From a virus: 64,000 nt of DNA. The notes below the pieces were generated by a model, which made no database searches, had not been told where the DNA came from, and saw only the letters and a list, made by a program, of their open reading frames with translations. Position 1 is the stretch's first letter. Every line of letters begins with the position of its first letter. This document shows positions 4,030-53,325 of the stretch, in pieces. Location: the IMG/VR virus record IMGVR_UViG_3300045988_162176, positions 64,001-128,000 of that record. One strand, given 5' to 3'. Both the position numbers and the translations under genes were made by a program.

Positions 4030-5748
4030 TTAGGCAAAAGCCTTAGTCTCAACAGCGTCATAACGCTTAGTCAGAAGAACATCCATAAGTGCATCCCAAG
4101 GATTAGTCTTGCCCGAGAGAACCATTTTCAAAGTTTGGACACTAAACCCGCTGACCATGATACCATAGTCATTCTTAGTCATGGGAAGACCATTTCCGGT
4201 ATTACCCGCTCCTGCGACATTCCAGAAAATGATTTTGCTCATTTCATACCCAGCGTTCTTGTACTTCTGCTCAATAGACTTAAGGAAAGCAGGAGCTTCC
4301 TGAGCAGTAGCACGAGTGCTGTTATAACCCCAATAACCATAACCACTGCCAGTGCTAACATTACGGATATTTACCATAGAATCCCAACCACCATCACTGA
4401 TAATCAGAATATTCTTAGGCAAATCACTCTGAGGAGAATGATTCTTAATTGCAGTATCAAGAATCAGGTCAAATACTGCTTCAAGGTTGGTATTAGCAAC
4501 CTCACTATGACGAGCAGCTTCCCTAAGATTTGCACGCAAAGAGTCATGATTAACATTAACCATCTGAGGACGTGCAGAGAAAGTAATGTAACGACCCTTA
4601 TATGCACCCTTAGCACGCTCTGCAAAGTAAATTGCAAGGGAGTTAGCAACCTCAAGAGCAGTCATACGAGTACGACCCACAGTAGCACACATAGAACCAG
4701 AGCCATCGGCAACAACAATAGTGGAACTATCATCGGTTACAAGATTGGGAAGAGCCTTCCACATGCCTTCAAGGGCGGCATCATAAGAACGAGGAGAAGT
4801 ACCCCAATCATTCTCACAATACTTGTGAACAATGTCACAAGGATTAGAGACAGAAGAATTAATCTTCGCCTCACCCTTAGTAAGAGCGTTCAGATATGCA
4901 CGGCGGCGCTCTTCATCATTACGAAGGAAAGCCTTATTGTAATTAAGGTTTGCCTTAGAAGGAACAGTCTCGTAATCAATGCTCTGCCAGTTCTGAGAAG
5001 ACATCTTACGCTCAACAACGTCAAGATACTTACGGAGAGCAGACAGACCCTTACGATACTCACGCTCAGTCAGACCGAGCATATCCATAGTCTTAAGACC
5101 ACGCTTACGAGTATCATGGCTGTGAGAAGAAGCACTATCAAGCCACTTCGCCATAAGGCTAATGGACTTACCCTTCTTCATGTTAGCCATATCTTCCTTC
5201 CACTGCTTGCGAATCAGTTCACGAACAACAGGCTTAGTGGTAGGATTATCCATGACAGTATAGATATAATCCCAACGAGAATACTCAGGAATCATAGGAA
5301 TCAGGTTCGCCACAATCTGAGCACCACCATTGTTCATCATATCCTTAAGACAAATCTGGAAGAGACGGCGCTCACCCTGACCCTCACGGATATCGCCAGC
5401 ATAGAACAGCCAACGAATAGCGAGACGAGGATTCTCAGAATAAGCGGCACGGAACTTCTTCACAATATCGCCATCGGGAAGACTACGAAGAGCAGAGATG
5501 GAAGTGTTGATGTCAAGAAGAGCAGAACCAGAGGACTTATAGGCAATAGCACCATTAGAAGTGTACTGCTTATCAGCAGGAAGAGAAGGAACTGCAACCT
5601 TAGTGTAGTAGCCCTTGGCAGTATTCTCAACCTTGTCCATGAAAGAAGCCTTACGGCTAACTCGGTTGGACTTAGTAACAGGCTTTTCAGGCTTAGGAGC
5701 CCAAACCTTAGTGTTATTCTTCTTGTTAGGATTGTTGTAGTTATACAT
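4030..5748 (-). CDS. vWA-domain protein with large N-terminal DUF2828/TROVE-like region
   Basis: MIDAS motif VVADGSGSM and vWA-like C-terminal half. Start placed at ATG 5748 behind AAGGAGAA; the longer ORF-track N-terminus would overlap repeat E0. Confidence 0.7.
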   Translation of the reverse strand: MYNYNNPNKKNNTKVWAPKPEKPVTKSNRVSRKASFMDKVENTAKGYYTKVAVPSLPADKQYTSNGAIAYKSSGSALLDINTSISALRSLPDGDIVKKFRAAYSENPRLAIRWLFYAGDIREGQGERRLFQICLKDMMNNGGAQIVANLIPMIPEYSRWDYIYTVMDNPTTKPVVRELIRKQWKEDMANMKKGKSISLMAKWLDSASSHSHDTRKRGLKTMDMLGLTEREYRKGLSALRKYLDVVERKMSSQNWQSIDYETVPSKANLNYNKAFLRNDEERRRAYLNALTKGEAKINSSVSNPCDIVHKYCENDWGTSPRSYDAALEGMWKALPNLVTDDSSTIVVADGSGSMCATVGRTRMTALEVANSLAIYFAERAKGAYKGRYITFSARPQMVNVNHDSLRANLREAARHSEVANTNLEAVFDLILDTAIKNHSPQSDLPKNILIISDGGWDSMVNIRNVSTGSGYGYWGYNSTRATAQEAPAFLKSIEQKYKNAGYEMSKIIFWNVAGAGNTGNGLPMTKNDYGIMVSGFSVQTLKMVLSGKTNPWDALMDVLLTKRYDAVETKAFA

Positions 5749-5770: not shown

Positions 5771-5836
5771 CTAGACTCTTTTTGTCCTTTTTTCAAAATA
5801 AAAGTTTTTTGTAGTTTGCTGTGAGAGTCTAACTAC
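5771..5836 (-). repeat. E-repeat copy E0 (in the 5' leader of the vWA gene)
   Basis: Arms ctagactct (5771-5779) / agagtctaa (5824-5832), the latter preceded by tttgctgtg. Confidence 0.7.
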
Positions 5837-17571: not shown

Positions 17572-17679
17572 AATTTTTTGTCTCCTTTAATTTCTTTGTT
17601 TTACTTTAGTTATTATTTTAGTTTTTTGTTTCTTCTGCTTATATGTCAAAAGGAAAAATACTTTTCCTTAGATATTTCA

Positions 17680-17749
17680 GCGGCGACTTCGAATCGAACG
17701 AGCATTTCACGGGTTAGAGCCGTGCGCATTGACCATTATACTACGCCGC
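17680..17749 (-). tRNA. Suppressor tRNA, anticodon CUA (reads UAG)
   Basis: Acceptor GCGGCG/CGCCGC, D arm GTAT-AATGGTCA-ATGC, perfect anticodon stem CACGG/CCGTG, loop CTCTAAC. T loop is TTCGATT but the T stem is weak (3 bp). No encoded CCA. Confidence 0.65.
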
Positions 17750-17857: not shown

Positions 17858-17940
17858 AATAAAGCTAGACTCATTTTTCAAAACATTTGTAATCCCAAAT
17901 CACAAGTCTCTAAATAATTGCTGTAAGAGTCTACTTTATT
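17858..17940 (-). repeat. E-repeat copy E1
   Basis: Arms ctagactc (17865-17872) / gagtctac (17927-17934) plus attgctgtaa. Interior hairpin TTGTGA-TTTGGGA-TTACAA has the same loop as the tRNA-Pro anticodon loop. Confidence 0.75.
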
Positions 17941-17954
17941 TTTTTATTTATAAA

Positions 17955-18090
17955 TGGTGGGAATGGAGTGACTCGAACACTCAATTTCCCGATTTGGTGT
18001 TTTAGACAAGTCTTGCACTTGCATTTGAAGTTTTACTTTTAAACTACTAAAACATAAGTCGGGCCCTCTGACCAATTGAGATACATCCCC
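17955..18090 (-). tRNA. tRNA-Ile-like (anticodon TAT) interrupted by a 59-nt insert between positions 36 and 37
   Basis: Acceptor GGGGATG/CATTCCC+ACCA, D arm TCTC/GAGG, anticodon stem CCCGA/TCGGG, T arm GAGTG-TTCGAGT-CACTC. Loop CTTAT[59 nt]AA becomes CTTATAA after excision. Confidence 0.7.
17995..18053 (-). ncRNA. tRNA-like insert lacking an anticodon arm (intron candidate)
   Basis: GTTTTAG-TA-GTTT-AAAAGTA-AAAC-TTCAAAT-GCAAG-TGCAAGA-CTTGT-CTAAAAC-A-CCA: 7-bp acceptor, D-like arm, T arm, discriminator and CCA. Confidence 0.65.
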
Positions 18091-18100
18091 ATATAAAATC

Positions 18101-18192
18101 CTAGACACCATATAAAAATCTAAAAAAGTATTTATTCCAATTAAATATATTTCCCAGTATTTTTATTTTAATTGCTGTAAGTGTCTACTTTT
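18101..18192 (-). repeat. E-repeat copy E2
   Basis: Arms ctagacac (18101-18108) / gtgtctac (18181-18188) plus attgctgtaa. Interior hairpin TATTTA-ATTGGAA-TAAATA. Confidence 0.75.
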
Positions 18193-18204
18193 AACATTAC
18201 TAAT

Positions 18205-18274
18205 CTAAACCCTATCCATAATCTTTTTTTCAAGCAAAAATTAAGTAGTTAAATTGCTGTAAGGGTTTACTTTT
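18205..18274 (-). repeat. E-repeat copy E3
   Basis: Arms ctaaaccc (18205-18212) / gggtttac (18263-18270) plus attgctgtaa. Confidence 0.7.
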
Positions 18275-18326
18275 AAATCATCAATAACTTACCATCTTGT
18301 TTGTAGTACTCCAAACAATTCAATCT

Positions 18327-18392
18327 TGCACCGTGGGGGATTCGAACCCCTCTTAAGCCCTCCGTCGAGCGACCCCAACCTTGGTACGGCAC
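18327..18392 (-). tRNA. tRNA-like gene with truncated body (isotype undetermined)
   Basis: Acceptor GTGCCGT/ACGGTGC and T arm GGGGG-TTCGAAT-CCCCC are clear, but only 35 nt lie between them (41 expected) and no anticodon arm could be folded. Confidence 0.35.
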
Positions 18393-18399
18393 TTATAAA

Positions 18400-18545
18400 C
18401 TAGACGCATAATACTAACAAAGGAGAATCATGAAAGCATCATAAACTAATTAGCAAGGAACAATACCCAAAATCTTTTTTTAAATATTAGAATTTTTTTA
18501 TAGAATTTGATTTTTATTATTGTTTGCTGTAAGCGTCTACGTTAG
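18400..18545 (-). repeat. E-repeat copy E4 (longest interior)
   Basis: Arms ctagacgc (18400-18407) / gcgtctac (18533-18540) plus tttgctgtaa. Confidence 0.7.
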
Positions 18546-20284: not shown

Positions 20285-20372
20285 TGGTTGCTGAAGCATG
20301 GGAGTCGAACCCACTATCGTACAGGGTATGAACCTGACATGATTTATAATTATCCGTTTCACTCGCCAGCAA
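20285..20372 (-). tRNA. tRNA-Met/Ile2-type (anticodon CAT) with enlarged D region
   Basis: Loop TTCATAC, T arm GTGGG-TTCGACT-CCCAT, ~9 extra nt between acceptor and anticodon stem, CCA encoded. The acceptor register is ambiguous. Confidence 0.55.
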
Positions 20373-20449: not shown

Positions 20450-20989
20450 TAATTAAACTATACTCCCAAATAGCAACAGAGTTTTTTACAAGAACTCTAT
20501 AACTTGGCTTTTGTTGTTCATCCTCAGCACCACCTGTTAGGAGCAATAAGCAGTATGCTCGGCTTATTGTGTTTTAAGGTTACATGACCCATAACCTCAA
20601 TACCTACCCCGATTTAGTTGCAGTAATCAGAGTTTTTGTTTGAACAAGTACGCAACCACTTGTCCCCGTAAACACGGCACAGACTTCTCCGTATAGCTTT
20701 TCGCTGTAGGTTTTTGATGTTACATTCGCACCCTAACATCTCTCGCCATATATCTGTGTTCTGCCCATGTGCGGCTCATAGCCTTTTTCAGCTTGTGACA
20801 GCTTACTTTGCGTTCGAGAACCATTCACTTGTTCTCTACTCCAAGACTTCGGACGGGCGTTGGGGCTTTAGCTTAACGGACTAAAGGTGAGTTCAAATAT
20901 ATGAAACACCGACGAGGCTTTAGCCATCCTTGCTGAATCGGGCAGTTTAATATAAGTTATATTCTCTGTCTGCCAATTGATATATAACT
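20450..20989 (-). ncRNA. Candidate large structured ncRNA (~540 nt) between tRNA-Leu and tRNA-Ala
   Basis: No credible ORF on the coding strand, clearly more GC-rich than flanks, embedded in the tRNA run. Confidence 0.35.
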
Positions 20990-21087: not shown

Positions 21088-21210
21088 CTAGACACGTTTT
21101 TTTTGATATCGGTCATCCAGACATCCCCCGAAGGAGACGGAAGAATCGAACTTCCCCGTTTAATTTTCCATATTAAAGAATCAAGTAATTTTGCTGTGCG
21201 TGTCTACTTG
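21088..21210 (-). repeat. E-repeat copy E5 enclosing a permuted tRNA-like module
   Basis: Arms ctagacacg (21088-21096) / cgtgtctac (21199-21207). Interior runs hairpin TTAAT-ATGGAAA-ATTAA, T arm GGAAG-TTCGATT-CTTCC, GTCTCCT, TC, GGGGGAT (3' acceptor strand before 5'). Confidence 0.6.
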
Positions 21211-21260
21211 AAAGGAATTTATATTTGCCTATTAGAAAAATAGGAGCGTCAATCTATTAA

Positions 21261-21394
21261 CTAGACTCATTTTACAAAATCTGTTGCTCTACCAGTTGAG
21301 CTAACTCCCGATGGTCGGGAGCAGAGGATTCGAACCTCCAACACACAGGCCCATAGCATTTGTGATTGTAAAGTTGCTGTTAGAGTCTACTTGA
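21261..21394 (-). repeat. E-repeat copy E6 enclosing a circularly permuted tRNA gene
   Basis: Arms ctagactc (21261-21268) / gagtctac (21383-21390) plus gttgctgtta. A second helix pairs TTTACAA with TTGTAAA. Confidence 0.75.
21275..21349 (-). tRNA. Circularly permuted tRNA (Gln-like, UUG): 3' half precedes 5' half
   Basis: Minus strand reads CCTGT-GTGTT-GGAGG-TTCGAAT-CCTCT-GCTCCCG-A-CCA-T-CGGGAGT-TA-GCTC-AACTGGTA-GAGC-A-ACAGA-TTTTG. The acceptor strands pair 7/7 only in this permuted order. Confidence 0.65.
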
Positions 21395-21466
21395 AAGGAA
21401 TGCTTTTATGAACAATAAAAAATGAACATTAGCTTACAAATAAATTTGTATCTTTACCATGTTTTT

Positions 21467-21495
21467 ACTATAACATAAAATTTTCATTTTGTCAA
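21467..21495 (-). promoter_or_regulatory. Sigma70-type promoter
   Basis: TTGACA (21490-21495) - 17 nt - TATAGT (21467-21472), ~85 nt upstream of E6. Confidence 0.65.
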
Positions 21496-21518
21496 GAATT
21501 TTAAAACAAAAATTTTAC

Positions 21519-21602
21519 TGGTGGGTGAGGAAGGTGCCGACCCTTCTACTCCGTTAGGAAAGAGTTTTACAGACTCCCGTGTTTGCCGATTCACTACTCA
21601 CC
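21519..21602 (-). tRNA. tRNA-Tyr (anticodon GTA)
   Basis: Type II: stem GGAGT/ACTCT, loop CTGTAAA, long variable arm. T loop is non-canonical (GTCGGCA) and the acceptor register is uncertain. Confidence 0.65.
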
Positions 21603-21633
21603 TATTTAATTATTTTCCTTTTTTAGAAAGGGG

Positions 21634-21700
21634 CTAGACGCTTTTTGTGTATTCTTATTTAACAGATAAGTACATTTAAATTGCTGTAAGCGTCTACTAT
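21634..21700 (-). repeat. E-repeat copy E7
   Basis: Arms ctagacgc (21634-21641) / gcgtctac (21690-21697). Interior hairpin CTTAT-CTGTTAA-ATAAG has an Asn-type GUU loop. Confidence 0.75.
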
Positions 21701-21732
21701 TGAAGTCATTACAAAATTAGCATTTCTGCTAT

Positions 21733-21808
21733 TGGTGCTCATGGAGGGACTCGAACCCTCGACAGACGGCTTAAAAGGCCGCTACTCTACCAACTGAGTT
21801 ACATGGGC
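21733..21808 (-). tRNA. tRNA-Lys (anticodon TTT)
   Basis: Stem GCGGC/GCCGT, loop CTTTTAA, T arm GAGGG-TTCGAGT-CCCTC, CCA encoded. Confidence 0.85.
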
Positions 21809-21815
21809 ATAAATA

Positions 21816-21952
21816 CTAGAGACATTGTTGTTATGGACTCCTGCCTTAAACCACTTGGCTACATACTTCAACTGAAGACGTTCGGATTCGAACCGAAGAA
21901 TGGGAGTTTGGCTTCTAACATACTTTCAGAATTGCTGTTAGTCTCTACTTTA
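21816..21952 (-). repeat. E-repeat copy E8 enclosing tRNA-like parts (order and anticodon unresolved)
   Basis: Arms ctagagac (21816-21823) / gtctctac (21941-21948). The interior has T arm TTCGG-TTCGAAT-CCGAA, then a Gln-like D arm GCC-AAGTGGTTTAA-GGC, with split stem GGAGT/ACTCC. Confidence 0.55.
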
Positions 21953-22119
21953 TAAATATCTTATTGAAAGGAAATTATTCATATCAGATAGAGAGAAAGG
22001 AGAAATAATATCTCGTCAAATAATTAATTCTTAACCCTTCGATAGATTTAAGTTCCCCTCATTTAAATCCGATAAAACTTACTCACACTATCATAAGAAC
22101 GGATTTCTGATTTGAATAA

Positions 22120-22195
22120 TGGTACTCGGTACGGGGTTCGAACCCGTGCTACTGACGTGAAAGGCCAGTGTCTTAGCCCACTTGACTAACCGAGC
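22120..22195 (-). tRNA. tRNA-Glu (anticodon TTC)
   Basis: Stem CTGGC/GTCAG, loop CTTTCAC, T arm ACGGG-TTCGAAC-CCCGT, CCA encoded. Confidence 0.85.
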
Positions 22196-22203
22196 ATATT
22201 AAC

Positions 22204-22330
22204 CTAGACTCTTTTGCGTATTATTCACCACAGAGCGCCCTCTGACGAGAATCGAACTCGCTAATGATTGTTTTGCAGACAATTGTGTTAACCTTTTTAA
22301 GAATTTGCTGTAAGAGTCTACTTTATTATT
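22204..22330 (-). repeat. E-repeat copy E9 enclosing a permuted tRNA-Cys-like module
   Basis: Arms ctagactct (22204-22212) / agagtctac (22313-22321). Interior runs ATTGT-CTGCAAA-ACAAT (GCA), CATTA, GCGAG-TTCGATT-CTCGT, CAGAGGG, CGCTCTG. Confidence 0.6.
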
Positions 22331-22458
22331 CAGGAGGTTTTACCTATGCACTTATTATAACATATCATCTTTAAGATGTCAACCACTTATTAAAATTTTC
22401 TTTTTGCTTTTTATCTTTTTGAGAAGTTTTTATTTTGCTCTTTTCTTAAGATGTATTT

Positions 22459-23479: not shown

Positions 23480-24505
23480 CCCTTTTATTTTATTAAATAT
23501 ATAAGGAACAAAAACTGATAACTACTGACAGACCAGCTTTTCACTTATCTGTCCTCGGTTTGGCTGAGGAGGGGCTATTCCTTATAAGGGGCTTACACTC
23601 AACTATCTTGGTCATTTTCATTATCAGTTTTGCTCATTGCATAAGGGTTTAACGTACCCAGTTAAGCAAAGCAACGGTCTTTCTATTGTTACCAGTCCAT
23701 CAGACTTGGAGGGCGGTTCAGTGTCGAATACATTGTAACCAGCTAAACTGTATTCCAAGATAAGTTTCGTACTATATCTTACGGATTTCTTGTTTTTTTA
23801 AAAAGACATCAAGAAATATCTAACCATTCTGTCTTTTGGAGCGGCATCGAAGAATCGAACTCCAAACATAATAAAAGTATTGTCCATGGCTACTTTTATT
23901 ATTACACCAGTTGCCGCATATTTGCTGTCTCTCCAAGCTGTCACCGCTAATATGGTTGTAGGTTCTGGACGGTCTGAACTTAGGTGCGCCATACACACAT
24001 CCTAACATTAAGCGATACTCCATCTGTTAGGCGAACTTCCATCTTTATAAGACGGTATCGTAGTTACTGGACCTCATAATTGGATTCGAACCAACTTCCT
24101 CTCCCGATGTGGCTGTTATCGCTAAGGAGCTACCTTAGTGTTTATTCAACATCAGTTATCGAGAATGCACCATTACACTAATGGGGATATAAATGTTATA
24201 GACCTTTTAACTATAACTCACAGGCTTTCCCTTATTCAAACAAGGTGGCGGGACGTGTGCTGTGTTTTTAAAAGAAAGTCCTTGTTATACTTTTTCTTTC
24301 AAGGATTTAGTGGTAAGAACTTTTCTTGACCATAGGCGTTCTCAAACCTACTCCTTTACCTATATGCTCAACATAAATTAGGTTAAGCATCTCAACCTTG
24401 AGGTCAACTGGGGTATCTTACAGCCGTTCGGTTTATTTTTAGTTTGAGTAAACCTTCCTCAAACACTCCTTCATCCACTTTTTTACAAGGATACGGAATC
24501 CACGA
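23480..24505 (-). ncRNA. ~1 kb ORF-free structured region with embedded tRNA-like modules
   Basis: GC-enriched. Two T-arm plus 3'-acceptor-CCA ends (CCA at 23837-23839 and 24068-70). ACAGCAA/ACAGCCA motifs as in the E repeats. ORF-track ORFs here are short and overlapping. Confidence 0.35.
23837..23917 (-). ncRNA. tRNA-like RNA: acceptor + T arm + 12-bp hairpin replacing the D and anticodon arms
   Basis: GCGGCAA...ATGCCGC-T-CCA, T arm TGGAG-TTCGATT-CTTCG, hairpin ATAATAAAAGTA/TACTTTTATTAT. The 5' leader GGAGAGACAGCAAATAT pairs TTGGAG with CTCCAA at the 3' end. Confidence 0.45.
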
Positions 24506-24609: not shown

Positions 24610-24740
24610 CTTGACACTTTTTTCTAGCCAACCACGGTTAACCATTCCTTGCTCAAGGGATACGTTAATAAGGAGTCGAACCTTACACGACGTTATTCCA
24701 AAAACATAAAATAAATTTGCTGTGAGTGTCAACTTTTGTT
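24610..24740 (-). repeat. E-repeat copy E10 (variant arms) enclosing tRNA-like parts
   Basis: Arms cttgacac (24610-24617) / gtgtcaac (24726-24733) plus tttgctgtga. Interior T arm TAAGG-TTCGACT-CCTTA then TTAACGT. The fold is not resolved. Confidence 0.55.
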
Positions 24741-25497: not shown

Positions 25498-25631
25498 TGG
25501 AGCAAGATACGAGATTCGAACTCGCCCTTACGGTTTTGGTCCTTTAAGTAAGACTTGAACTTACATCAATGGTTTTTCATTAAACTATTAAAGGGGAAGA
25601 CCGTCGTGCTAACCACTAACACTAATCCTGC
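25498..25631 (-). tRNA. tRNA-Gly-like (anticodon TCC) interrupted by a 58-nt insert between positions 36 and 37
   Basis: Acceptor GCAGGAT/ATCTTGC+T+CCA, D arm GTGT/GCAC, perfect stem ACGGT/ACCGT, T arm GCGAG-TTCGAAT-CTCGT. Loop CTTCC[58 nt]AA becomes CTTCCAA after excision. Confidence 0.7.
25537..25594 (-). ncRNA. tRNA-like insert lacking an anticodon arm (homolog of 17995-18053)
   Basis: CCTTTAA-TA-GTTT-AATGAA-AAAC-CATTGAT-GTAAG-TTCAAGT-CTTAC-TTAAAGG-A-CCA. Confidence 0.65.
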
Positions 25632-25781
25632 ATATATGATGCCACTCACGCATGAATGGCATCAAACCCCACGCTCCGTAGAGACCTCATGCTAGCCTGA
25701 TAGGTTTCCTACTAAGATACCAGTAAAGTAATGAGCTTAACCAGACAAACGTAGACTTAACCAGTGGAGTATCTAGCTTAA

Positions 25782-30848: not shown

Positions 30849-31289
30849 TTAATCTAAACTTATTTTACGTCTATATCTACATTCTCTGACAAACCAATCT
30901 TGCAATTCTTTTACAGTCATTGGTTTTGGGGGTGGTTCTAATTTATATTCTCCATTTTCATCCAAAGGTTGACCAGTATAACAATAAGCTCTAACATAAC
31001 ATTCTGCCGCAGGAACCATATCTTCTGGATTTTTTACATAATGGTCAGCTATAAATCCAACCGCAAATTTTCCAGCAGTAGTATAAGTTTTTACGTGCCT
31101 TGACAGGCAAAGATATTGTCCTCTATCAACTGGCTTATTATTATATTTGTATTCTCCTAAAGCACAACCAACATCCCACAGTTCCATATAATAATCTGTA
31201 TCTGTAGGATAAATCTTTGTGCCTTTTACATTTAGATTGCTAAAATCAATTAACTACTTTGCTCTTGCAATATTTTTAAACAGACTCAT
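30849..31289 (-). CDS. Hypothetical protein (TAG at 31254-31256)
   Basis: The ORF-track 30849-31187 ORF extends through TAG to ATG 31289, which overlaps the end of the Thg1-like gene. Confidence 0.5.
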
Positions 31290-32100
31290 TGGTAAATACC
31301 TTCTGACTAATAAAGTCTTTACCTTCTTCACTTGTTAAAATTGGCATTTCATAATCAAGAATCCACTTATAACGAATAGCCTCCTGACCATCTTTGCCAA
31401 TAACAGTAGTAGGAACACGATATGCACAAGTACCACGTTTCTCTACTGTTGTATAATCGTTCCAGTTTACACCCTTTTCAGTAAACATCTTATCCTGTAA
31501 TTTGGTAGTATTAATACCATGAAGTTCTTTTTGAGAATACAAAGATTGAGCAACTGCCTGAATAGAATTTCGAGTACAATCCTGCTGTCTCCAAACAAAA
31601 TAATTATGCACTTCAAAGGCAGGGACAACAAATACTCTACTATCAAAGGTGGGCATTTCTTTTCCCTTACGAACCATTTTCCAATCGTAAGAATCTTGAT
31701 TCATATTAAAGATATCTAAGGTTGTATCAATAATAGTATTCTCGGCAAAATAATTATTAAACCAAAGAGTACAAAGAGCCGCAGATGTACTAACAATTTT
31801 TTGAATATTATTGTCAAACCATGGCTGAGAATTTCTTTCGCTCTGAATCATGACAAGAGAAATTTCATCTGACTCAACATAACCAAACTTAACATTTGGA
31901 ATAATTTCACAGAGCTTAAGCATAGTCTGTTGCATGGTTTTAACAAAAATAGGGTCAAAAGGTTTCTTCATACCACGGCAGAATGAATGAAAATGAGCTC
32001 CATCCAAACGGATAATTACAGGAAAATTCTCAGGAAGATAATTACGATATCTATTCTCGTAAGCACCCTTCATTCTATCGCTTAAAGTTTTATACTCCAT
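31276..32100 (-). CDS. Thg1-like protein (tRNA-His guanylyltransferase / 3'-5' polymerase family)
   Basis: RLDGAHFHSF, YVESDEISLV, FDSRVFVVP, YFVWRQQDCTRN match the Thg1 family signatures. Confidence 0.8.
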   Translation of the reverse strand: MEYKTLSDRMKGAYENRYRNYLPENFPVIIRLDGAHFHSFCRGMKKPFDPIFVKTMQQTMLKLCEIIPNVKFGYVESDEISLVMIQSERNSQPWFDNNIQKIVSTSAALCTLWFNNYFAENTIIDTTLDIFNMNQDSYDWKMVRKGKEMPTFDSRVFVVPAFEVHNYFVWRQQDCTRNSIQAVAQSLYSQKELHGINTTKLQDKMFTEKGVNWNDYTTVEKRGTCAYRVPTTVIGKDGQEAIRYKWILDYEMPILTSEEGKDFISQKVFTNESV

Positions 32101-33336: not shown

Positions 33337-34584
33337 TCATCTAATCTCCACTAAATATCGAATAGTTACTTGGTCAGGACGATAGAAAATAATTTCTGGA
33401 TTGCGAAGCATTCCCTTTTCAGGAGAAGCGTAAACACAATGGCAAGGAGGATTCTTTTTCTGAAGCACATCAAAATTAAAATGATAACACTCGGAAGTAT
33501 GTTCATAAACAGTATAAGGATTTCCATAAGCCACTTCAAAAATAGCCATGAATCCAGTATTATTACTTCCTCTTGCCCAGTAAGAACCACTTACACTTGT
33601 ATAACCAATACTCTTTCGAGCTAAAGTGCTAAAATACAATCCATCGCTAAACATCGAACCTGTATAGATAGCATTTGCGGGACGAATCTTCAAACCCATT
33701 TTAAGGATATTAAAGAAATTTTGAGACCTGCTACCATGCCACATAAGTTTAGTGTTTGTAATATTATAATCTTTAATAAAAGAATTAAATGCTTTATTAG
33801 TCTCTAAATTATTAACACTCCATGCTTTTACGAATCTATCAGAATCTCGCCCAAGCATATTTTTAATTCTGGCAACTTCATCCTGAGTGACATCTTCCAT
33901 GGTAATACCCATCTTCTGCAAAATGCTTTCAGAAGCTTTAATTTCAGAATCGGTGTCGGCAATTTTTACCTTGGGCTTATAAACTTGACCAGCCATAGTA
34001 TCAAGCAAGCTTTGTTCCTCAGAAAGCTTTTTGTCGTATTCGGAAGAATCAGAAACAAGACAGTCAGAAACGCGCTTCATCTTACGAGGAACAATAATAA
34101 ACAATTCATTCAAATTCTTGTTAAATTCCTCAACAGACCAGTTTTTGTAGTTCGCTGCAATATAGTCAATCTTTTCCTGAGCAGCATCAATCATAGCCTG
34201 AGTAACAGCTTCAGCACGAACTGAATAAGCAGATTGAATAGTCTTATTAGCATAATCCCAAAGACGTTTAACAATCTCTCTAACAGATAAATTTTGAACC
34301 AAACCAAATTCATCTACCCCGTTAGACTTGTCTTCAACTTTAGAATCAGCAATAACTTCCTGCATCAAATCAGAACGGTCAACATACCCCTTCTTCAATT
34401 TAGAAGAAAGAGTAGAATTCCATTTGGACATAGGATAAGTTTTAGTCTGAGGAGCAGCACCAACACGACCATATTCAGCCGTAAAAGTATCATCTCCATT
34501 TGGACTAATTTTGTAATATTTATTATGTCCAAGGTCTCCAAAATTAGGGTCTACAAAGATTAAATATTTGGGAGTATAATCCAT
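33337..34584 (-). CDS. WGR-domain poly(ADP-ribose) polymerase-like ADP-ribosyltransferase
   Basis: N-terminal WGR-like NKYYKI...AEYGRVGA. C-terminal H-Y-E pattern LMWHGSR ... GLYFS ... NPEIIFY. Confidence 0.75.
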   Translation of the reverse strand: MDYTPKYLIFVDPNFGDLGHNKYYKISPNGDDTFTAEYGRVGAAPQTKTYPMSKWNSTLSSKLKKGYVDRSDLMQEVIADSKVEDKSNGVDEFGLVQNLSVREIVKRLWDYANKTIQSAYSVRAEAVTQAMIDAAQEKIDYIAANYKNWSVEEFNKNLNELFIIVPRKMKRVSDCLVSDSSEYDKKLSEEQSLLDTMAGQVYKPKVKIADTDSEIKASESILQKMGITMEDVTQDEVARIKNMLGRDSDRFVKAWSVNNLETNKAFNSFIKDYNITNTKLMWHGSRSQNFFNILKMGLKIRPANAIYTGSMFSDGLYFSTLARKSIGYTSVSGSYWARGSNNTGFMAIFEVAYGNPYTVYEHTSECYHFNFDVLQKKNPPCHCVYASPEKGMLRNPEIIFYRPDQVTIRYLVEIR

Positions 34585-34617
34585 AATTCCATCTCCTATA
34601 AGTAAATCTCTATGATT

Positions 34618-34646
34618 AGATTACCATAGAGATTTACTTTTGTCAA
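34618..34646 (-). promoter_or_regulatory. Sigma70-type promoter
   Basis: TTGACA (34641-34646) - 17 nt - TAATCT (34618-34623). Confidence 0.5.
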
Positions 34647-34686
34647 GGGTTTATTCAGTTATTTTTTACTAATCCAATCAGTTAAA

Positions 34687-35406
34687 TTACTGGTAGCAGA
34701 AAGTAAGATGAATCTTATAATTCTTGCTTACCTCGTCAAACTTTTTAGCATCTTCAATCGTTTCAGTAAAAACACGAAGAATCATTTCACGAACATCTTC
34801 CCAATCAAGATTACCCTTGCCACACCCAATAAAAGGCATAGCAAGATAAGAAATCTCTTCATTAATACAATACTGAGCAAGGTCTTCAATACAATGTTCA
34901 AGATTAGTCATAGTAATTGGTTCATACTTTTTATTAGCAATCATAAGTAAAAATAAATTCCGAATCCAAATAGCTTCACCAGCACAACGCTCATCAAACT
35001 TATCAGGAATCTTATCAACAATATGATAATAATTGTCAAGTCTACGAGCAGTATCACTACCCAAAGAGAGGTCAGCGGGGATACCATAACAGATATTGTA
35101 ATAAGGAGGAAGGTCGAACATATCCTTATTTACTTCTTCATACTCAACAGGATTTTCATAACTGGTATCATCGACTTCATCATCTTCATCTGCAAATTCA
35201 AGCTCACCATCATGCACCACAAGAGGACAACCACAGTTAGGACAATGCATTACCTTGGGCTTCAAAACAGAAACATAACCAGAAGTAGAAACAATCTTAC
35301 CATCTTCATCAGTAGAAGCAACTGCGGTAGTAAAATAATCCTTATCCTGAGTAGAAGTTACCTTTGGCTCATCGAACTTGTAATTGCGACTAAAAATATT
35401 AGCCAT
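34687..35406 (-). CDS. Zinc-ribbon + macro-like domain protein
   Basis: CPNCGC in the N-terminal half. The C-terminal YLAMPFIGCGKGNLDWEDV resembles a macro-domain C-terminus. Confidence 0.5.
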   Translation of the reverse strand: MANIFSRNYKFDEPKVTSTQDKDYFTTAVASTDEDGKIVSTSGYVSVLKPKVMHCPNCGCPLVVHDGELEFADEDDEVDDTSYENPVEYEEVNKDMFDLPPYYNICYGIPADLSLGSDTARRLDNYYHIVDKIPDKFDERCAGEAIWIRNLFLLMIANKKYEPITMTNLEHCIEDLAQYCINEEISYLAMPFIGCGKGNLDWEDVREMILRVFTETIEDAKKFDEVSKNYKIHLTFCYQ

Positions 35407-40451: not shown

Positions 40452-41212
40452 AATTTATCCCTTAATTCTTCACGAGTAGGATATCTACCACAACACTTGT
40501 CACCCTCTGGACACCAAAGAAGATACTGACAATGAGGAACAAGTTCTTTAGCAAATACAGGATTAATCCCTGCAATTTGTCTCTTCATTTCAACAGCAAT
40601 CTTGCGGATGGGCTCTTGAGCGCGAGAGCATAAACGCTTGTGCATAAATGTAATCAAAGCTTCGGGAGTAAAGCCAATCGCTAAAGTAGTATTAGTAGCT
40701 CTGGGCAAAACAAAGTTTGCATCTTCTACTGCGGAATGAACATCAATGCCATTTTCAGTAAGAATATCACGAATAAGTCTACGAGTAGTATCAATATTAC
40801 TCATAAGATTTTGATACAAAGCCTTTGCCTTTTCATTATTCTCAATATTCTTAGGAATAATATAAGTAAAATTATTCTTATCAATATATCTGAATGAAGC
40901 AAGATTCTTAACAATCTCATCAGGACTTACACGAGGAATTGCTTCAATCAAATCCATATAAGCATACTTATCCTGATTGTCATAACGCACTCCAATTTCA
41001 GAACGCATCATTTGTTCCAAAGTACCTCTATCAGCTTCAATTTCAAACTTAATATATTCACAACGAGAACCGCTCATGTGACCTGAATTTTCACAATTTT
41101 TACCTACTCGTTCAGCATACTTCTTATCTGTGCCATAACATTCACAAGCAAATTCGCCATGGTTTTTGTATAAATCCTCTAATACAGTAGGATTCAAAAG
41201 GGTTACTTTCAT
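40436..41212 (-). CDS. thyX: FAD-dependent thymidylate synthase ThyX-like (divergent)
   Basis: GHMSGSRCEYIKFEIE...RGTLEQMMR and FMHKRLCSRAQEPIRKIA resemble ThyX blocks; sits among nucleotide-metabolism genes. Confidence 0.5.
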   Translation of the reverse strand: MKVTLLNPTVLEDLYKNHGEFACECYGTDKKYAERVGKNCENSGHMSGSRCEYIKFEIEADRGTLEQMMRSEIGVRYDNQDKYAYMDLIEAIPRVSPDEIVKNLASFRYIDKNNFTYIIPKNIENNEKAKALYQNLMSNIDTTRRLIRDILTENGIDVHSAVEDANFVLPRATNTTLAIGFTPEALITFMHKRLCSRAQEPIRKIAVEMKRQIAGINPVFAKELVPHCQYLLWCPEGDKCCGRYPTREELRDKLWTQE

Positions 41213-41831
41213 TACGCCTTTATTTCTCCCTTCTTATATTTCATCAAAAGATATTCAAAAGTTTGTGGAGTATAATTCATATAAGGCATCATACATCCAA
41301 CATTAATCATCTGTGCTCTATTTAAATATTCATTCCCATTGGAATTTTCTAATTTTTCTTTTGCCATTTTAGCAAAATCTTCTACTAAATCTTGTTCTTT
41401 GGTTATATGAGTATGCCCATGTAAATGGAAACAATTATCATAGCAAGACCCATAATAAGAAAGAATTGCAAAATGAGAAAGAATTACCCTATAAGGTTTA
41501 CCATCAACCGTCTCAGTTACTTCTTTGTAATGACAAATTTCAGCTAATTTTTTCTTGACTCCTGTAGAATATTGTTTACAGTCATGATTGCCTTGAATTA
41601 AATGAATATTGCCATGTAATTTATTTAAAATACGAATCCACTCATCTGACCCTGCTTTCCACAGAAAATCTCCAAGTACATATACATGGTCTGCATTTGA
41701 AACTTGTTTATTCCAACGGGAGATTAAATCAAGCTCCATTTCTTCTGTCGTATCATATGGGCGGTGGTCAAAATTAATGATGTTCGTTAAGTATGTCCAA
41801 AGTGTAAATCACTTATATAAAAATTGGACAT
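41212..41831 (-). pseudogene. Calcineurin-like metallophosphoesterase with interrupted frame
   Basis: MSNFYISDLHFGH (DxH motif) ends at TAA 41787-41789. The rest (LTNIINFDHRPY...GDF...GNHD...GHTH) continues in the -1 frame. Confidence 0.55.
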
Positions 41832-50949: not shown

Positions 50950-52308
50950 TTACCCTTCCACCATAGAGTTTTTAAAACGCTTTAAATTGTGTAGGGCTTT
51001 TGTAATTTCAGAATATTTGTAGCAAAACTGTTTCTTCAGCAAGAAATCGTTTTCTTGCCCAAGATATTTGGTCTTTGTTCTGCCCTTTAATACTTTAGGA
51101 AGTTTATCCATCCAAAGCATTGCTTCTTTTTTATCATTCCAAAAGTCTACACATTCCGCATTTCCTTTAACTAAAATTTTATCAATAAGCTCTTTATAGA
51201 GATTAAGATATTCATGAACAGTATTATAATATTCCATAATTAAATCTCTATATGCTTCAGGACATTTTGCCAAAAAGTCATCAAATCTATCTTCGTGAAT
51301 AGCATTAATAACAGCGTTAGGAGAAATATTTTTAGATAATGCTTTATGCATTAAAACATAATCCGATGTTTTGACTTTGCATCTAAAATGATTTTTATGT
51401 CTATCAACCATATCAACTACCCAACCTTCTTTTTCAGAAGAAAGATAATTATCAGTATCAGCTAAAATGCTAAATAAAGTAGCATTATAATACCATTGAG
51501 TCATTTTAGAATCATATTCCTCAGCCATATCACTAAGGATATCAAAAGAAACTTCCTTACCATCCTTAACATCTCTTGCCGCAAGTAAATATAATCCTTC
51601 TTGAGATTCATTATATTTAACAACAATAGGATTTTTTGGAGAAATATATTCAAAAATAAAAGTATAATCAGGATAATCCTTAATTAATTCTTTCTGCCCA
51701 TCAGATAAGAGCTTATAACCCTCAGCAAGTCTCCAAGATTCAACAGGGTCTAATGCCTGAGAACCAGAACCTAAAATTCTGTCTTCCTCTGCAATATATC
51801 TGTATTGCTGATAAGAACCATCAAGCTTATTAGTAATAAAAACTGAATGAGCAAAATTATATTTAGACCTAATATTTTTAGGAGACCAATCACCATCATC
51901 CTCACCATAGTTCTTAAACTTTGCCAAAGATGCAAGAGCAATTTCATCGTTCTTTAAATCAAAGACACAAGAACGACATTCTCTATAAAGACCATCATAT
52001 AATTCAAAGAAAGAGCCTAAATCATAATCATCAGATAATTCAATAAAACCCTTGTACTTAAAAAGCACATAATGGTCATAACAAGTAATCTGAAGAGGGT
52101 CAAAAATCTTATTTAACTTTTCATTAAGTTTAGGAGTAATATTCCCCCATACTTCAAGAACTCTGTCAAGCCAATCATTAAAATTATAATTCTCAGGACA
52201 AGGTTCATTGTTAAGGAGAGTATAAGACTGGATATACTTTCTTTTAACAGTCATAACATATTCATAAAGAGGATGCCAAAGAAACTCTTTTTGAAAACGA
52301 AAATTCAT
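50950..52308 (-). CDS. RNA ligase (T4 Rnl1-like)
   Basis: Nucleotidyltransferase motif I TNKLDGS; length and adjacency to a polynucleotide-kinase-like gene. Confidence 0.6.
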   Translation of the reverse strand: MNFRFQKEFLWHPLYEYVMTVKRKYIQSYTLLNNEPCPENYNFNDWLDRVLEVWGNITPKLNEKLNKIFDPLQITCYDHYVLFKYKGFIELSDDYDLGSFFELYDGLYRECRSCVFDLKNDEIALASLAKFKNYGEDDGDWSPKNIRSKYNFAHSVFITNKLDGSYQQYRYIAEEDRILGSGSQALDPVESWRLAEGYKLLSDGQKELIKDYPDYTFIFEYISPKNPIVVKYNESQEGLYLLAARDVKDGKEVSFDILSDMAEEYDSKMTQWYYNATLFSILADTDNYLSSEKEGWVVDMVDRHKNHFRCKVKTSDYVLMHKALSKNISPNAVINAIHEDRFDDFLAKCPEAYRDLIMEYYNTVHEYLNLYKELIDKILVKGNAECVDFWNDKKEAMLWMDKLPKVLKGRTKTKYLGQENDFLLKKQFCYKYSEITKALHNLKRFKNSMVEG

Positions 52309-52344
52309 CTTAAACTCTCCTTTACTAATTATTTATCTTCTAAA

Positions 52345-53325
52345 TTATTCTTCAGAAATTCCACTTGCAATTTTATCACATTCATTAAACAAGAAAAGCT
52401 TATCAAGATTTTCTTTTCCCATAACCTTTTCCCATTTAGCTTTAGACTTTTCAGTTTCAAGAAAGAATGGGAGCATATGGAAATTAACATAAAACAGACA
52501 TTTTAAAATATCATTCATATTAGTAAATCCAATGCAATCCAGATTCGCTAAGAGGTCATATGTCCCTACATTATGATGACTATAATATCTATAATCACCA
52601 GAACCATCTTCTTTGGGCTGTCCAGTAGTTAACTTGCCTAAATCATGAATCTGTGCGGCTCTATAAAGAACCTTATCGTCAGTTCTCTTAGCAACTTCCT
52701 CAGCACAAATCCTGCAATGCTCATCTAAAGTATACTTATGATGATGAGTCTTTTGGTCAAAACCTTTCATCAAGCTCATAATATAGTCATCATCAGTAGT
52801 CCAATTAGACTGAGGCACAATTACTTCAAACTGATTAAAATTCCAACCAATTAAATTAATTGTATCAAAACCTTCCTCATAAAAAGGAATTTCAAACTTA
52901 CCAATCTGTCTATCAATAACTTCTTCGGGAACTGTACGAGCCCTTGCTCTATTCTGTCTTTTGCAAACAGCAATAGGAGTAGTCATAACATAAGCAACTT
53001 TAGTGACATTTTCCTTATTGCGAACAATATCCAACAAGCTCTTACGAGATTTAACATTAATATTAGTTGCATCGACAATGATATTCATTTTATCAACGCA
53101 ATTATTAATACGGCGACGAACTTCTTTAAAGACCTCATCATTATGAGTTTGGTCATTTACATCTCCAAAAACAGTTTCACGAATTTCATCCGACGAAACA
53201 ATCATTGTGGGCTGACCCATTTTAGTCAACATATCTTTAAGATTCTGAGCAAGAGTAGATTTGCCACTTGCAACAACTCCAATCATCATCATAAAATTCG
53301 TATGTTCCATTTTTGTTCTCCTCAC
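52345..53325 (-). CDS. P-loop polynucleotide kinase-like domain fused to an HD phosphohydrolase domain
   Basis: Walker A GVVASGKST in the N-terminal half and HD signature AAQIHDLGK in the C-terminal half. Confidence 0.6.
   Translation of the reverse strand: MRRTKMEHTNFMMMIGVVASGKSTLAQNLKDMLTKMGQPTMIVSSDEIRETVFGDVNDQTHNDEVFKEVRRRINNCVDKMNIIVDATNINVKSRKSLLDIVRNKENVTKVAYVMTTPIAVCKRQNRARARTVPEEVIDRQIGKFEIPFYEEGFDTINLIGWNFNQFEVIVPQSNWTTDDDYIMSLMKGFDQKTHHHKYTLDEHCRICAEEVAKRTDDKVLYRAAQIHDLGKLTTGQPKEDGSGDYRYYSHHNVGTYDLLANLDCIGFTNMNDILKCLFYVNFHMLPFFLETEKSKAKWEKVMGKENLDKLFLFNECDKIASGISEE

Follow-up and report, generated by a model that had tools for sequence, protein, structure and literature searches.

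The window analysed here, 64,000 nucleotides (nt) spanning positions 64,001 to 128,000 of the viral record IMGVR_UViG_3300045988_162176 (IMG/VR), looks like part of a large phage genome and raises a question about a series of tRNA-shaped modules that have the 3' acceptor strand ahead of the 5' one: are they permuted precursors of tRNAs, as the initial annotation had proposed, or RNAs of another kind? All the open reading frames (ORFs) of any length lie on the minus strand, together with 17 tRNAs called by ARAGORN and two further tRNA hits of Rfam. On the plus strand, ten copies of TTGCTGTnnnnGTCTAC are found at 17.9-24.7 kb, and it is these E repeats that enclose the modules. Here we document the anatomy of the resulting E units, the covariation of their stems, their association with a Ro-like gene across distant phages and the similarity of its product to the Ro60 fold. 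In our judgement the E units are rather probably an array of Y-RNA-like tRNA mimics for the Ro-like protein of the phage, and their tRNA-shaped modules are most likely not tRNA precursors.

A common frame around tRNA-like modules

On the minus strand, all 11 units (E0 to E10; Table 1) share the form 5'-GUAGAC-nnnn-ACAGCAA-(cargo of 37-116 nt)-n'n'n'n'-GUCUAG-3'. ACAGCAA is invariant in 11 of 11 units and the base adjoining it is unpaired, while the terminal helix (GUAGACnnnn/nnnnGUCUAG) extends over 7-10 base pairs (bp). Its inner pairs covary from unit to unit (TCTT/AAGA, ACG/CGT, GCTT/AAGC), and so does the nominally constant part in E3 (GTAAACCCT/AGGGTTTAG) and in E10 (TTGACAC/GTGTCAA). The next tRNA or tRNA-like gene starts 7-30 nt after the end of most units, the exceptions being E6 and E3, each of which is followed by another E unit, and consensus promoters (TTGACA-17-TATAAT) lie upstream of E9 and of E6. 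What the frame encloses is variable. The minus strand of the window has 24 motifs with the features of a T arm (a 5-bp stem and a UUCRAnY loop) and the plus strand has none, against 0.1 expected from shuffles; ten of them fall outside called tRNAs, five of these in E5, E6, E8, E9 and E10. By contrast, the cargo of E1-E4, which lacks a T arm, and that of E7 are not tRNA-like.

The order of parts is clearest in E9. Its ACAGCAA (22311-22305) gives way to an AU-rich linker ending GGUUAA-CAC, where GGTTAA-CAC (22290-22285) represents the 3' part of the D loop and stem. An A then precedes a complete anticodon arm, ATTGT/CTGCAAA/ACAAT (22283-22267; loop CUGCAAA), and CATTA leads to the T arm GCGAG/TTCGATT/CTCGT (22261-22245). 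The acceptor is a 5-bp hairpin, CAGAG-GGCG-CTCTG (22244-22231), capped by a GGCG loop and followed by TG, the 5' D-stem strand GTG (22228-22226), a linker and the repeat helix. The D stem GTG/CAC is hence split by the repeat helix. In E5, where ACAGCAA occupies 21197-21191, a second helix, TTGAT (21184-21180)/ATCAA (21107-21103), joins the module to the repeat helix and enters between a D-like segment and the anticodon arm. The latter is TTAAT/ATGGAAA/ATTAA (21176-21160), with loop AUGGAAA and anticodon GGA, and is followed by the T arm GGAAG/TTCGATT/CTTCC (21155-21139) and by the acceptor hairpin GTCTCC-UUCG-GGGGAT (21138-21123), of 6 bp and a UUCG tetraloop. The D-like segment (21122-21108) carries a conserved UGG. 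A D-like hairpin that could be drawn there (GTC-TGGAT-GAC) was rejected, for the relatives give it no support and only the UGG is conserved.

E8 and E6 are built differently. Beside its T arm (21897-21881) and an acceptor hairpin with one bulge, E8 has a complete, class-II-like D arm, GCC-AAGTGGTTTAA-GGC, and a stem GGAGT/ACTCC that continues into the repeat helix. Since the D arm and this stem are both present, the break in E8 must lie in the anticodon loop and not in the D region, and therefore no anticodon can be defined for this unit. Its minimum free energy (MFE) structure from RNAfold reproduces the cloverleaf-like fold, and its topology is that of E6 and of YrlA, a family of tRNA mimics considered below. 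The acceptor of E6 has 7 bp and is closed by A-CCA-U. In E10 the T arm is accompanied by a long interrupted hairpin, TTAAC..CCTT-GAGC-AAGG..GTTAA, of 5 bp, an internal loop and 4 bp. The modules share with the Rfam tRNA family (RF00005) the T arm with a UUCGAnU loop, the 5-bp anticodon stem with a 7-nt loop (U33, purine 37), the GG of the D region and a variable region of 4-5 nt, but they have no free acceptor end.

Much of this had been anticipated by the initial annotation. Its anticodon and T arms of E9 and E5, the E9 D stem with a partner in the leader, the T arms of E8 and E10, the single bulge of the E8 acceptor and the bracketing of tRNA-shaped modules by repeat helices, with the 3' acceptor strand first and entry points that differ among units, are all present on the minus strand. 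Other details had to be redrawn. The closed E9 acceptor exists, but as the 5-bp hairpin given above and not as a pairing of CAGAGGG with CGCTCTG; the E5 acceptor, written as GTCTCCT-TC-GGGGGAT, is the 6-bp hairpin with a UUCG tetraloop; and in E10 an internal loop takes the place of the single bulge. Likewise, a breakpoint in the D region describes E9 (D loop) and, approximately, E5 (between D region and anticodon arm), but E6 and E8 are entered at the anticodon loop.

At gathering thresholds Rfam reports only tRNAs in the whole window; with E-value thresholds, E5, E8 and E10 are without a match and E9 has a partial tRNA match, confined to model positions 10-63 (19.7 bits; gathering score 29). 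The Rfam scans of the window revealed no ribozyme, CRISPR-like element, group I intron or other family, and megablast matched the 8-kb tRNA/E region to no GenBank phage. Native or doubled, E5, E8, E9 and E10 obtain from ARAGORN nothing better than unreliable calls at relaxed thresholds, and doubled E6 is called as a tRNA with an intron. E9 was un-permuted by opening it at the acceptor loop, taking out the repeat helix and joining the remainder across the D loop. Of the 168 join variants, 33 are recognised as tRNA-Cys(GCA) by ARAGORN under its default settings, against no call in 20 shuffled sets. Re-joined E5 is called as tRNA-Ser(GGA), but only at a relaxed threshold (-ps90). The tRNA-like fold in permuted order is thus real. 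As MFE z-scores reach only -1.2 to -1.5, which is not significant, thermodynamics alone would not have revealed it.

Compensated stems and shifting anticodons

Fourteen related viral contigs contain the same units and allow the folds to be followed through sequence change. Between E5 of the window and all its relatives whole stems have been replaced with pairing retained: the T stem changes from GGAAG/CUUCC to UAAGG/CCUUA and the acceptor from GUCUCC/GGGGAU to AUCUUC/GAAGAU, with four pairs altered on both sides and 100% of cells paired. The stems of E8 show U-A/C-G, A-U/G-U and C-G/U-A exchanges, and its bulge is retained in the relatives. The tRNA-like body of E9 (61 nt) is unchanged across the 15 sequences save for one compensated T-stem pair and for anticodon positions 34-35. 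The anticodon of E9 reads GCA in six sequences, UGA in eight and GAA in one, and the two anticodon bases are the sole difference between the E9 of the window and that of one relative (L027). Similarly, E5 carries GGA in 13 sequences and GAA in two, in otherwise near-identical units. A decoding tRNA cannot swap its anticodon while its identity elements stay fixed, and E5 and E9 are for this reason not ordinary tRNAs; judging from these patterns of change, units of the E5, E8 and E9 type are structured RNAs under selection.

These data bear directly on the proposal that the units are permuted tRNA genes. Such genes are known from Cyanidioschyzon merolae, other algae and archaea, where the 3' half precedes the 5' half, the terminal sequences pair, and transcripts become ordinary aminoacylatable tRNAs by way of a bulge-helix-bulge motif, a splicing endonuclease and a circular intermediate. 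The E units have the same order of halves and likewise paired terminal sequences. Under this proposal the helix would join the ends of the transcript, which would be cut and circularised there and opened at the acceptor to yield tRNA-Cys(GCA) and tRNA-Ser(GGA). The ARAGORN calls of re-joined E9 and doubled E6 are in its favour, as are the A-CCA encoded between the 7-bp acceptor strands of E6, the lack of an ordinary tRNA-Cys or tRNA-Ser(GGA) in the window, the presence in it of an Rnl1-like ligase and a P-loop kinase, and the report that in Mycobacterium smegmatis RNase P cleaves YrlA and CCA is added to it (PMC4201824). Yet the acceptors of E5 and E9 are only 5-6 bp long, are capped by UUCG and GGCG, and have no discriminator, CCA or spacer; E9 would carry a G2-G71 mismatch, and E5 is called only at a relaxed threshold. 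There is no bulge-helix-bulge motif either, for the termini form a continuous helix of 7-10 bp followed by ACAGCAA, with no 3-nt bulges around a 4-bp helix. Moreover, the same bracket encloses non-tRNA cargo (E1-E4, E7) and sits in an mRNA leader. Finally, anticodons shift in otherwise identical bodies in both E9 and E5, and for E9 a fixed amino-acid identity is ruled out because positions 34-35 vary on an invariant body. We therefore hold it very improbable that the units are permuted tRNA genes.

The central claim of the initial annotation, that the modules are pre-tRNAs, is accordingly the part that finds no support here, in view of the short capped acceptors, the variable anticodons, the non-tRNA cargo in the same bracket and the resemblance of E6 to YrlA. 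Its expectation that the T-arm-like hairpins assemble into tRNA folds in some permutation is borne out by ARAGORN, at default settings for E9 and relaxed ones for E5, even if the thermodynamic z-scores are unremarkable, and the comparison with related phages that it called for yields compensatory changes that retain the stems of E5, E8 and E9.

A Ro60-like protein and its association with the module

The YrlA model of Rfam (RF02553) matches E6 over its full length (21268-21366, 39.8 bits, E 5.6e-6 for 13 kb). YrlA RNAs are tRNA mimics whose ends form a stem and whose internal domain consists of a T arm, a closed acceptor and a D arm, and they are encoded beside Ro60 in bacteria and in 22 phages (PMC4201824). 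Because E6 matches a family encoded beside a Ro60 orthologue, a Ro60-like gene was sought in the window, and the ORF at 4030-5748 presents itself as the candidate. Pfam assigns it DUF2828, DUF7788 and a weak VWA_2 match. A single-sequence AlphaFold model was too poor to be used (predicted local distance difference test, pLDDT, 42), but a model based on a multiple sequence alignment of 38 homologues reached a pLDDT of 70.8. In this model residues 75-335 are helical and residues 343-570 form an alpha/beta domain of the vWA type, in line with the HEAT-repeat ring and C-terminal vWA domain of Ro60-type proteins. The five best fold matches of the model in the PDB are all Ro60 (human, Xenopus), at full length and over 528-611 aligned columns, with Foldseek E-values of 4e-6 to 3e-4; isolated vWA domains rank after them. 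Among the 38 homologues, 15 match the Pfam vWA domain of Ro60 (vWA_Ro60) and none matches TROVE at E<=5. Homologues were found by tblastn in 695 GenBank phages, among them model phages of E. coli, Salmonella, Listeria and Campylobacter, and those of mycobacteriophages (~32% identity) are annotated as 'Ro-like RNA binding protein'. The modelled protein is best described as a distant, fold-level relative of Ro60, as sequence profiles do not reach Ro60 itself.

The leader of this gene contains an E unit of its own, E0, flanked by a promoter (TTGACA at 5879-5874, 17 nt, TATAGT at 5856-5851) on one side and by the ribosome-binding site (RBS) and ATG (5748) on the other. Its position between promoter and start codon is conserved in relatives. 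At homologous loci of 55-57% identity, too, a promoter and a hairpin precede the gene, with another stem but with the motif retained (AUGCCU-ACA-CAGCAA...AGGCAU; CGACCG-AUU-CAGCAA...CGGUCG). The location of E0 in the leader suggests co-expression or autoregulation. An alternative hairpin, AAGGAC/GTCCTT, can be drawn immediately upstream of the RBS with the 3' strand of E0 in its loop (5771-5795, minus strand), and a similar AAGGA...TCCTT pair occurs in a second locus (L162); the leader may thus switch between two folds.

To what extent the module travels with the gene was assessed at 80 viral loci whose homologues have 44-97% identity, using regex-based motif scans with simple controls. Helix+CAGCAA units number 132 within 600 nt 5' of the gene, typically in one to four tandem copies, as against 73 in the remaining ~6.9 kb per locus. 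Counted by strand, 231 lie on that of the gene and 59 on the opposite one. The 124 distinct units from other phages, 28 of which have a T-loop motif, follow the consensus W-A-G-R-C...C-n-n-A-CAGCAA-(U-rich)...G-Y-C-U-W-G, with CAGCAA invariant. In seven named phages of diverse hosts (Table 1), stem sequences are wholly different while the pairing and the CAGCAA frame are common, and gut jumbo phages too have the unit beside the gene; in Aeromonas phage Aeh1 the gene is present and no CAGCAA unit was seen in the 7.4 kb examined. Rfam 15 places no family at the unit positions in these loci. A reverse test started from 119 viral loci retrieved solely by the DNA pattern AGTAGACnnnnACAGCAA. A Ro-like protein (32-47% identity) is encoded in seven of them, all of them within the 30 loci whose pattern has a partner arm of 7 bp or more, and none within the other 89 (hypergeometric p ~4e-5, calculated by hand). 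Without the partner-arm filter, the exact-pattern scan returns mostly chance singletons.

The 'tRNA-Asn' annotated in Mycobacterium phage Gardann (KX507361; L220:3986-4056) is the interior of a helix+CAGUAA unit (TGGACTCC...GGAGTCCA) whose acceptor is closed. Some of the tRNA and 'tRNA-OTHER' features annotated in GenBank beside phage Ro-like genes are probably Y-like RNAs.

The frequent location of E0 and its counterparts directly between promoter and RBS, in many phages, could also be explained if helix and CAGCAA were a cis-regulatory operator for translational autoregulation of the Ro-like gene, with the copies in the tRNA cluster titrating the protein and the cargo being incidental; the overlap of the alternative leader hairpin with the 3' strand of E0 would fit such a mechanism. 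A purely cis-regulatory role, however, accounts for E0 but not for dispersed or downstream copies or for conserved cargo: units lie 3' of the gene in Gardann and downstream of it, in the adjacent cluster, in wV8, genomes hold up to 11 copies, and distant phages again have tRNA-like cargo, which is conserved. We consider this explanation decidedly unlikely.

The same breadth of distribution counts against the view that the repeats are processing or punctuation hairpins (e.g. RNase III sites), or a selfish miniature repeat, and the tRNA pieces functionless, decaying duplicates. E units are indeed interspersed with tRNAs, their cargo is very variable and not tRNA-like in half of them, the MFE z-scores are weak, and Chen et al. 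caution that tRNA dimers can mimic YrlA (PMC4201824). But the acceptor strands pair with each other within one unit, and hence are not halves of two tRNAs; compensatory changes keep the T, acceptor and anticodon-like stems; the body of E9 is invariant apart from its anticodon; and phages of at least five host phyla, with fully diverged stems, retain both the motif and its linkage to the Ro-like gene, something that neither drift nor recent spread can produce. This explanation, too, seems unlikely to us.

Among the closest known systems are the Y RNAs of Ro60. As in YrlA (PMC4201824), paired ends adjoin a short single-stranded motif, the internal domain is ordered T arm, loop-closed acceptor stem, D arm (fully so in E6 and E8), and the RNAs are encoded on the strand of a Ro60-type (HEAT plus vWA) protein, often in several copies of which some are without the tRNA-like domain, as in YrlB. 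In contrast, the motif is A-CAGCAA instead of GNCGAA(N)G, the partner belongs to DUF2828/DUF7788 and not to TROVE, and 11 copies are dispersed over a tRNA cluster, at distances of up to 17 kb from the gene. E5 and E9 furthermore keep a full anticodon arm, with entry in the D region, a strain-variable anticodon and a split or degenerate D arm. In Thermus phage phiLo, Ro60 binds two Y-like RNAs (Yrl1, Yrl2) encoded just 5' of the gene (PMC12135203, 2025). There, as here, a phage Ro60 homologue is preceded immediately by Y-like hairpin RNAs in which a 5'-3' stem flanks the motif loop, but the phiLo RNAs are two in number, carry CGAA and have no tRNA-like domain described; binding was shown by experiment in phiLo, while for the E units it is proposed. 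What sets the E units apart from known Y RNAs is therefore the CAGCAA motif, the retained anticodon arms, the entry in the D region and the variable anticodon. In the literature searched on DUF2828, phage Ro-like proteins and tRNAs, and phage Y RNAs we found the CAGCAA module undescribed, though an earlier description is possible.

Several points weigh against identifying the E units as Y-like RNAs of the Ro-like protein. The conserved motif is not the GNCGAA or CGAA of Ro60-binding Y RNAs, the E6 match stays below the gathering score of YrlA (69), and E5, E8, E9 and E10 do not match the YrlA model at E<=10. Only E0 abuts the gene, on the same strand; E5 and E9 lie 15-17 kb from it, beyond the limit of about 4 kb used for YrlA. 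The TM-scores to Ro60 are modest (0.35-0.41), and phmmer and hmmsearch comparisons of the protein with PDB sequences yield no Ro60 match. Finally, the MFE z-scores given above are not significant, and the covariation of E5 and E9 comprises few independent events in close relatives.

One design in several permutations

Related phages also contain RNAs in which helix and CAGCAA are attached to a tRNA body. These are tRNAs of 110-130 nt with normal ends, in which a capped hairpin and, after it, nnA-CAGCAA take the place of the anticodon loop, as in GUGUCU-GGAU-AGACAC-CUA-CAGCAA (L174:2468-2590), and homologous copies have no conserved anticodon. In these tRNAs the helix is capped and the acceptor open, the reverse of the E units with their open helix and capped acceptor. 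Since the module is attached to a tRNA body in both geometries, we are dealing with one RNA design in several circular permutations or points of attachment: the anticodon loop, the anticodon stem (E6, E8 and the YrlA type) and the D region (E5, E9). To this extent the different breakpoints proposed by the initial annotation hold good.

Table 1. Location of E units, associated genes and related features; coordinates refer to the window unless preceded by a locus label
Feature	Location	Strand	Description
E0	5771-5833	-	5' leader of the Ro-like gene; TTAGACTC-TC-ACAGCAA-37 nt-GAGTCTAG
E1	17865-17934	-	Helix and ACAGCAA frame; cargo without T arm
E2	18101-18188	-	Helix and ACAGCAA frame; cargo without T arm
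E3	18205-18270	-	Helix and ACAGCAA frame; cargo without T arm
E4	18400-18540	-	Helix and ACAGCAA frame; cargo without T arm
E5	21088-21207	-	Helix GTAGACACG/CGTGTCTAG; read 21207 to 21088
E6	21261-21390	-	Helix; ACAGCAA; T arm 21339-21323; full D arm
E7	21634-21697	-	Helix and ACAGCAA frame; short cargo, not tRNA-like
E8	21816-21948	-	Helix; ACAGCAA; extra hairpin; stem ACTCC/GGAGT; T arm; bulged acceptor hairpin; D arm
E9	22204-22321	-	Helix GTAGACTCTT/AAGAGTCTAG; read 22321 to 22204
E10	24610-24733	-	Helix GTTGACAC/GTGTCAAG; ACAGCAA; T arm 24685-24669
Promoter upstream of E9	22354-22382	-	TTGACA-17-TATAAT; ~30 nt from E9
Promoter upstream of E6	21495-21467	-	TTGACA-17-TATAAT
Ro60-like protein gene	4030-5748	-	Pfam DUF2828 and DUF7788/vWA; PHROG 850 'RNA-binding protein'
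Thg1-like 3'-5' nucleotidyltransferase	31276-32100	-	
PARP-like/WGR protein next to macro-domain protein	33337-35406 (region)	-	
Rnl1-like RNA ligase and adjoining P-loop kinase	50950-53325	-	Kinase AAA_33/KTI12-like
Mycobacterium phage Gardann			Three tandem units just 3' of gene; middle one with T arm, closed acceptor and D arm, mis-annotated as tRNA-Asn
E. coli phage wV8 (Felix O1-like)			Four units in adjacent tRNA cluster; one ordered T arm, acceptor hairpin, D arm
Bacillus phage PK-3			Units beside gene; one ordered T arm, acceptor hairpin, D arm
Listeria phage VEfB7			Three units immediately 5' of gene
Campylobacter phage F357			Units beside gene
Synechococcus phage B23			Units beside gene
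Sinorhizobium phage phiM7			Units beside gene
tRNAs with capped-hairpin module	L174:2468-2718; L195:2067-2720; L175:2236-2505; L217:2236-2672		
Synechococcus phage B23 'tRNA-OTHER'	L234:4824-4933		CUGCAA in place of CAGCAA
Aeromonas phage Aeh1 'tRNA-Val'	L232:7151-7272		122 nt; among module-carrying tRNA bodies

Other elements of the cluster also depart from the standard tRNA form. Two tRNAs (17958-18090 and 25505-25640, minus strand) have insertions of 56-65 nt in the anticodon loop, composed of a 7-bp closing stem (GTTTTAG/CTAAAAC and CCTTTAA/TTAAAGG), TAGTTTAA, a 5-bp hairpin with a 7-nt loop, and ACC before the final AA; CAGCAA is absent in both. Removal of the insertions leaves CU-UAU-AA (Ile-like) and CU-UCC-AA (Gly-like). 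ARAGORN misses both tRNAs and Rfam detects only part of the second; a small class of introns is possible. Immediately 5' of tRNA-Ala, a tRNA-like element (20285-20372, minus strand; T arm GTGGG-TTCGACT-CCCAT) begins with TTGCTGG and ends in CTTCAGCAA-CCA, which places the CAGCAA motif within its 3' acceptor strand; neither ARAGORN nor Rfam calls it. Right after E4, the element at 18320-18396 (minus strand; GTGCCGT...GAGGGG-TTCGAAT-CCCCC-ACGGTGCA) combines an acceptor and a T arm without normal D or anticodon arms, and no tool calls it. Two non-coding stretches of ~0.5-1 kb each (20460-20985 and 23500-24500, minus strand), by eye richer in G+C than their surroundings and with many hairpins, have no ORF of at least 80 aa and no Rfam match, and the second includes T-arm motifs at 23864-23848 and 24095-24079; both may hold further structured RNAs. 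The tRNA at 17679-17749 (minus strand) has the anticodon CUA of an amber suppressor and is labelled 'Pyl' by ARAGORN, which hints at TAG reassignment or read-through late in infection.

The window also encodes a set of genes of the RNA end-healing and repair type (31276-32100, 33337-35406, 41212-41739 and 50950-53325, minus strand), which besides the enzymes of Table 1 lists a metallophosphoesterase, and whose P-loop kinase may be a polynucleotide kinase. Such a set fits a context of tRNA damage and repair, where tRNA mimics might be used as tethers or decoys.

Taking the E units as Y-like RNAs of the Ro-like protein, one may sketch how they would work. The RNAs are probably released by tRNA-processing enzymes, because the distance from the end of a unit to the next tRNA is mostly 7-30 nt. 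Each RNA would have two parts: a constant module, formed by the terminal helix and the adjoining single-stranded A-CAGCAA, which we infer to be the binding site of the Ro60-like protein, and a variable cargo. In E5, E6, E8, E9 and E10 the cargo would mimic a tRNA, with a T arm and an acceptor capped by a loop, to which E6 and E8 add a D arm, as in the YrlA architecture, and E5 and E9 a complete anticodon arm, the constant module entering instead through the D region. The apparently permuted order would arise because the protein-binding helix holds the ends of the RNA and a loop closes the acceptor. The tRNA-like heads could act as tethers or decoys for tRNA-directed enzymes, candidates being anticodon nucleases of the host and the Rnl1-like ligase, P-loop kinase and Thg1-like enzyme of the phage itself.

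A broader reading, which as a whole we regard as possible but doubtful, would see in these RNAs a large, as yet unnamed class of ribonucleoprotein partners of DUF2828-type Ro-like proteins in phages, with a portable handle and with anticodon decoys or sensors. The class would range over Felix O1-like, A511-like, Campylobacter, cyanobacterial, mycobacterial and gut jumbo phages, and its handle would be placed on the tRNA body at the anticodon loop (the normal-ended tRNAs of related phages), the anticodon stem (E6, E8) or the D region (E5, E9). The intact, fast-changing anticodon stem-loops would be decoys or sensors directed against host anticodon nucleases, working together with the ligase, kinase and Thg1 of the phage.

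Particles of Ro60 and Y RNA have been described in animals, in some bacteria and in a small number of phages, and their role in phage infection has barely been explored. The locus described here suggests a second, far more widespread branch of Ro-like proteins (Pfam DUF2828, PHROG 850) with an RNA partner of its own. The signature of a terminal helix and CAGCAA would make such RNAs, several of which are now mis-called as tRNA or 'tRNA-OTHER', easy to annotate, and direct experimental handles are available in tractable phages. More generally, tRNA mimicry with anticodon loops that differ between strains links these RNAs to the conflict between phage and host over tRNA cleavage and repair.

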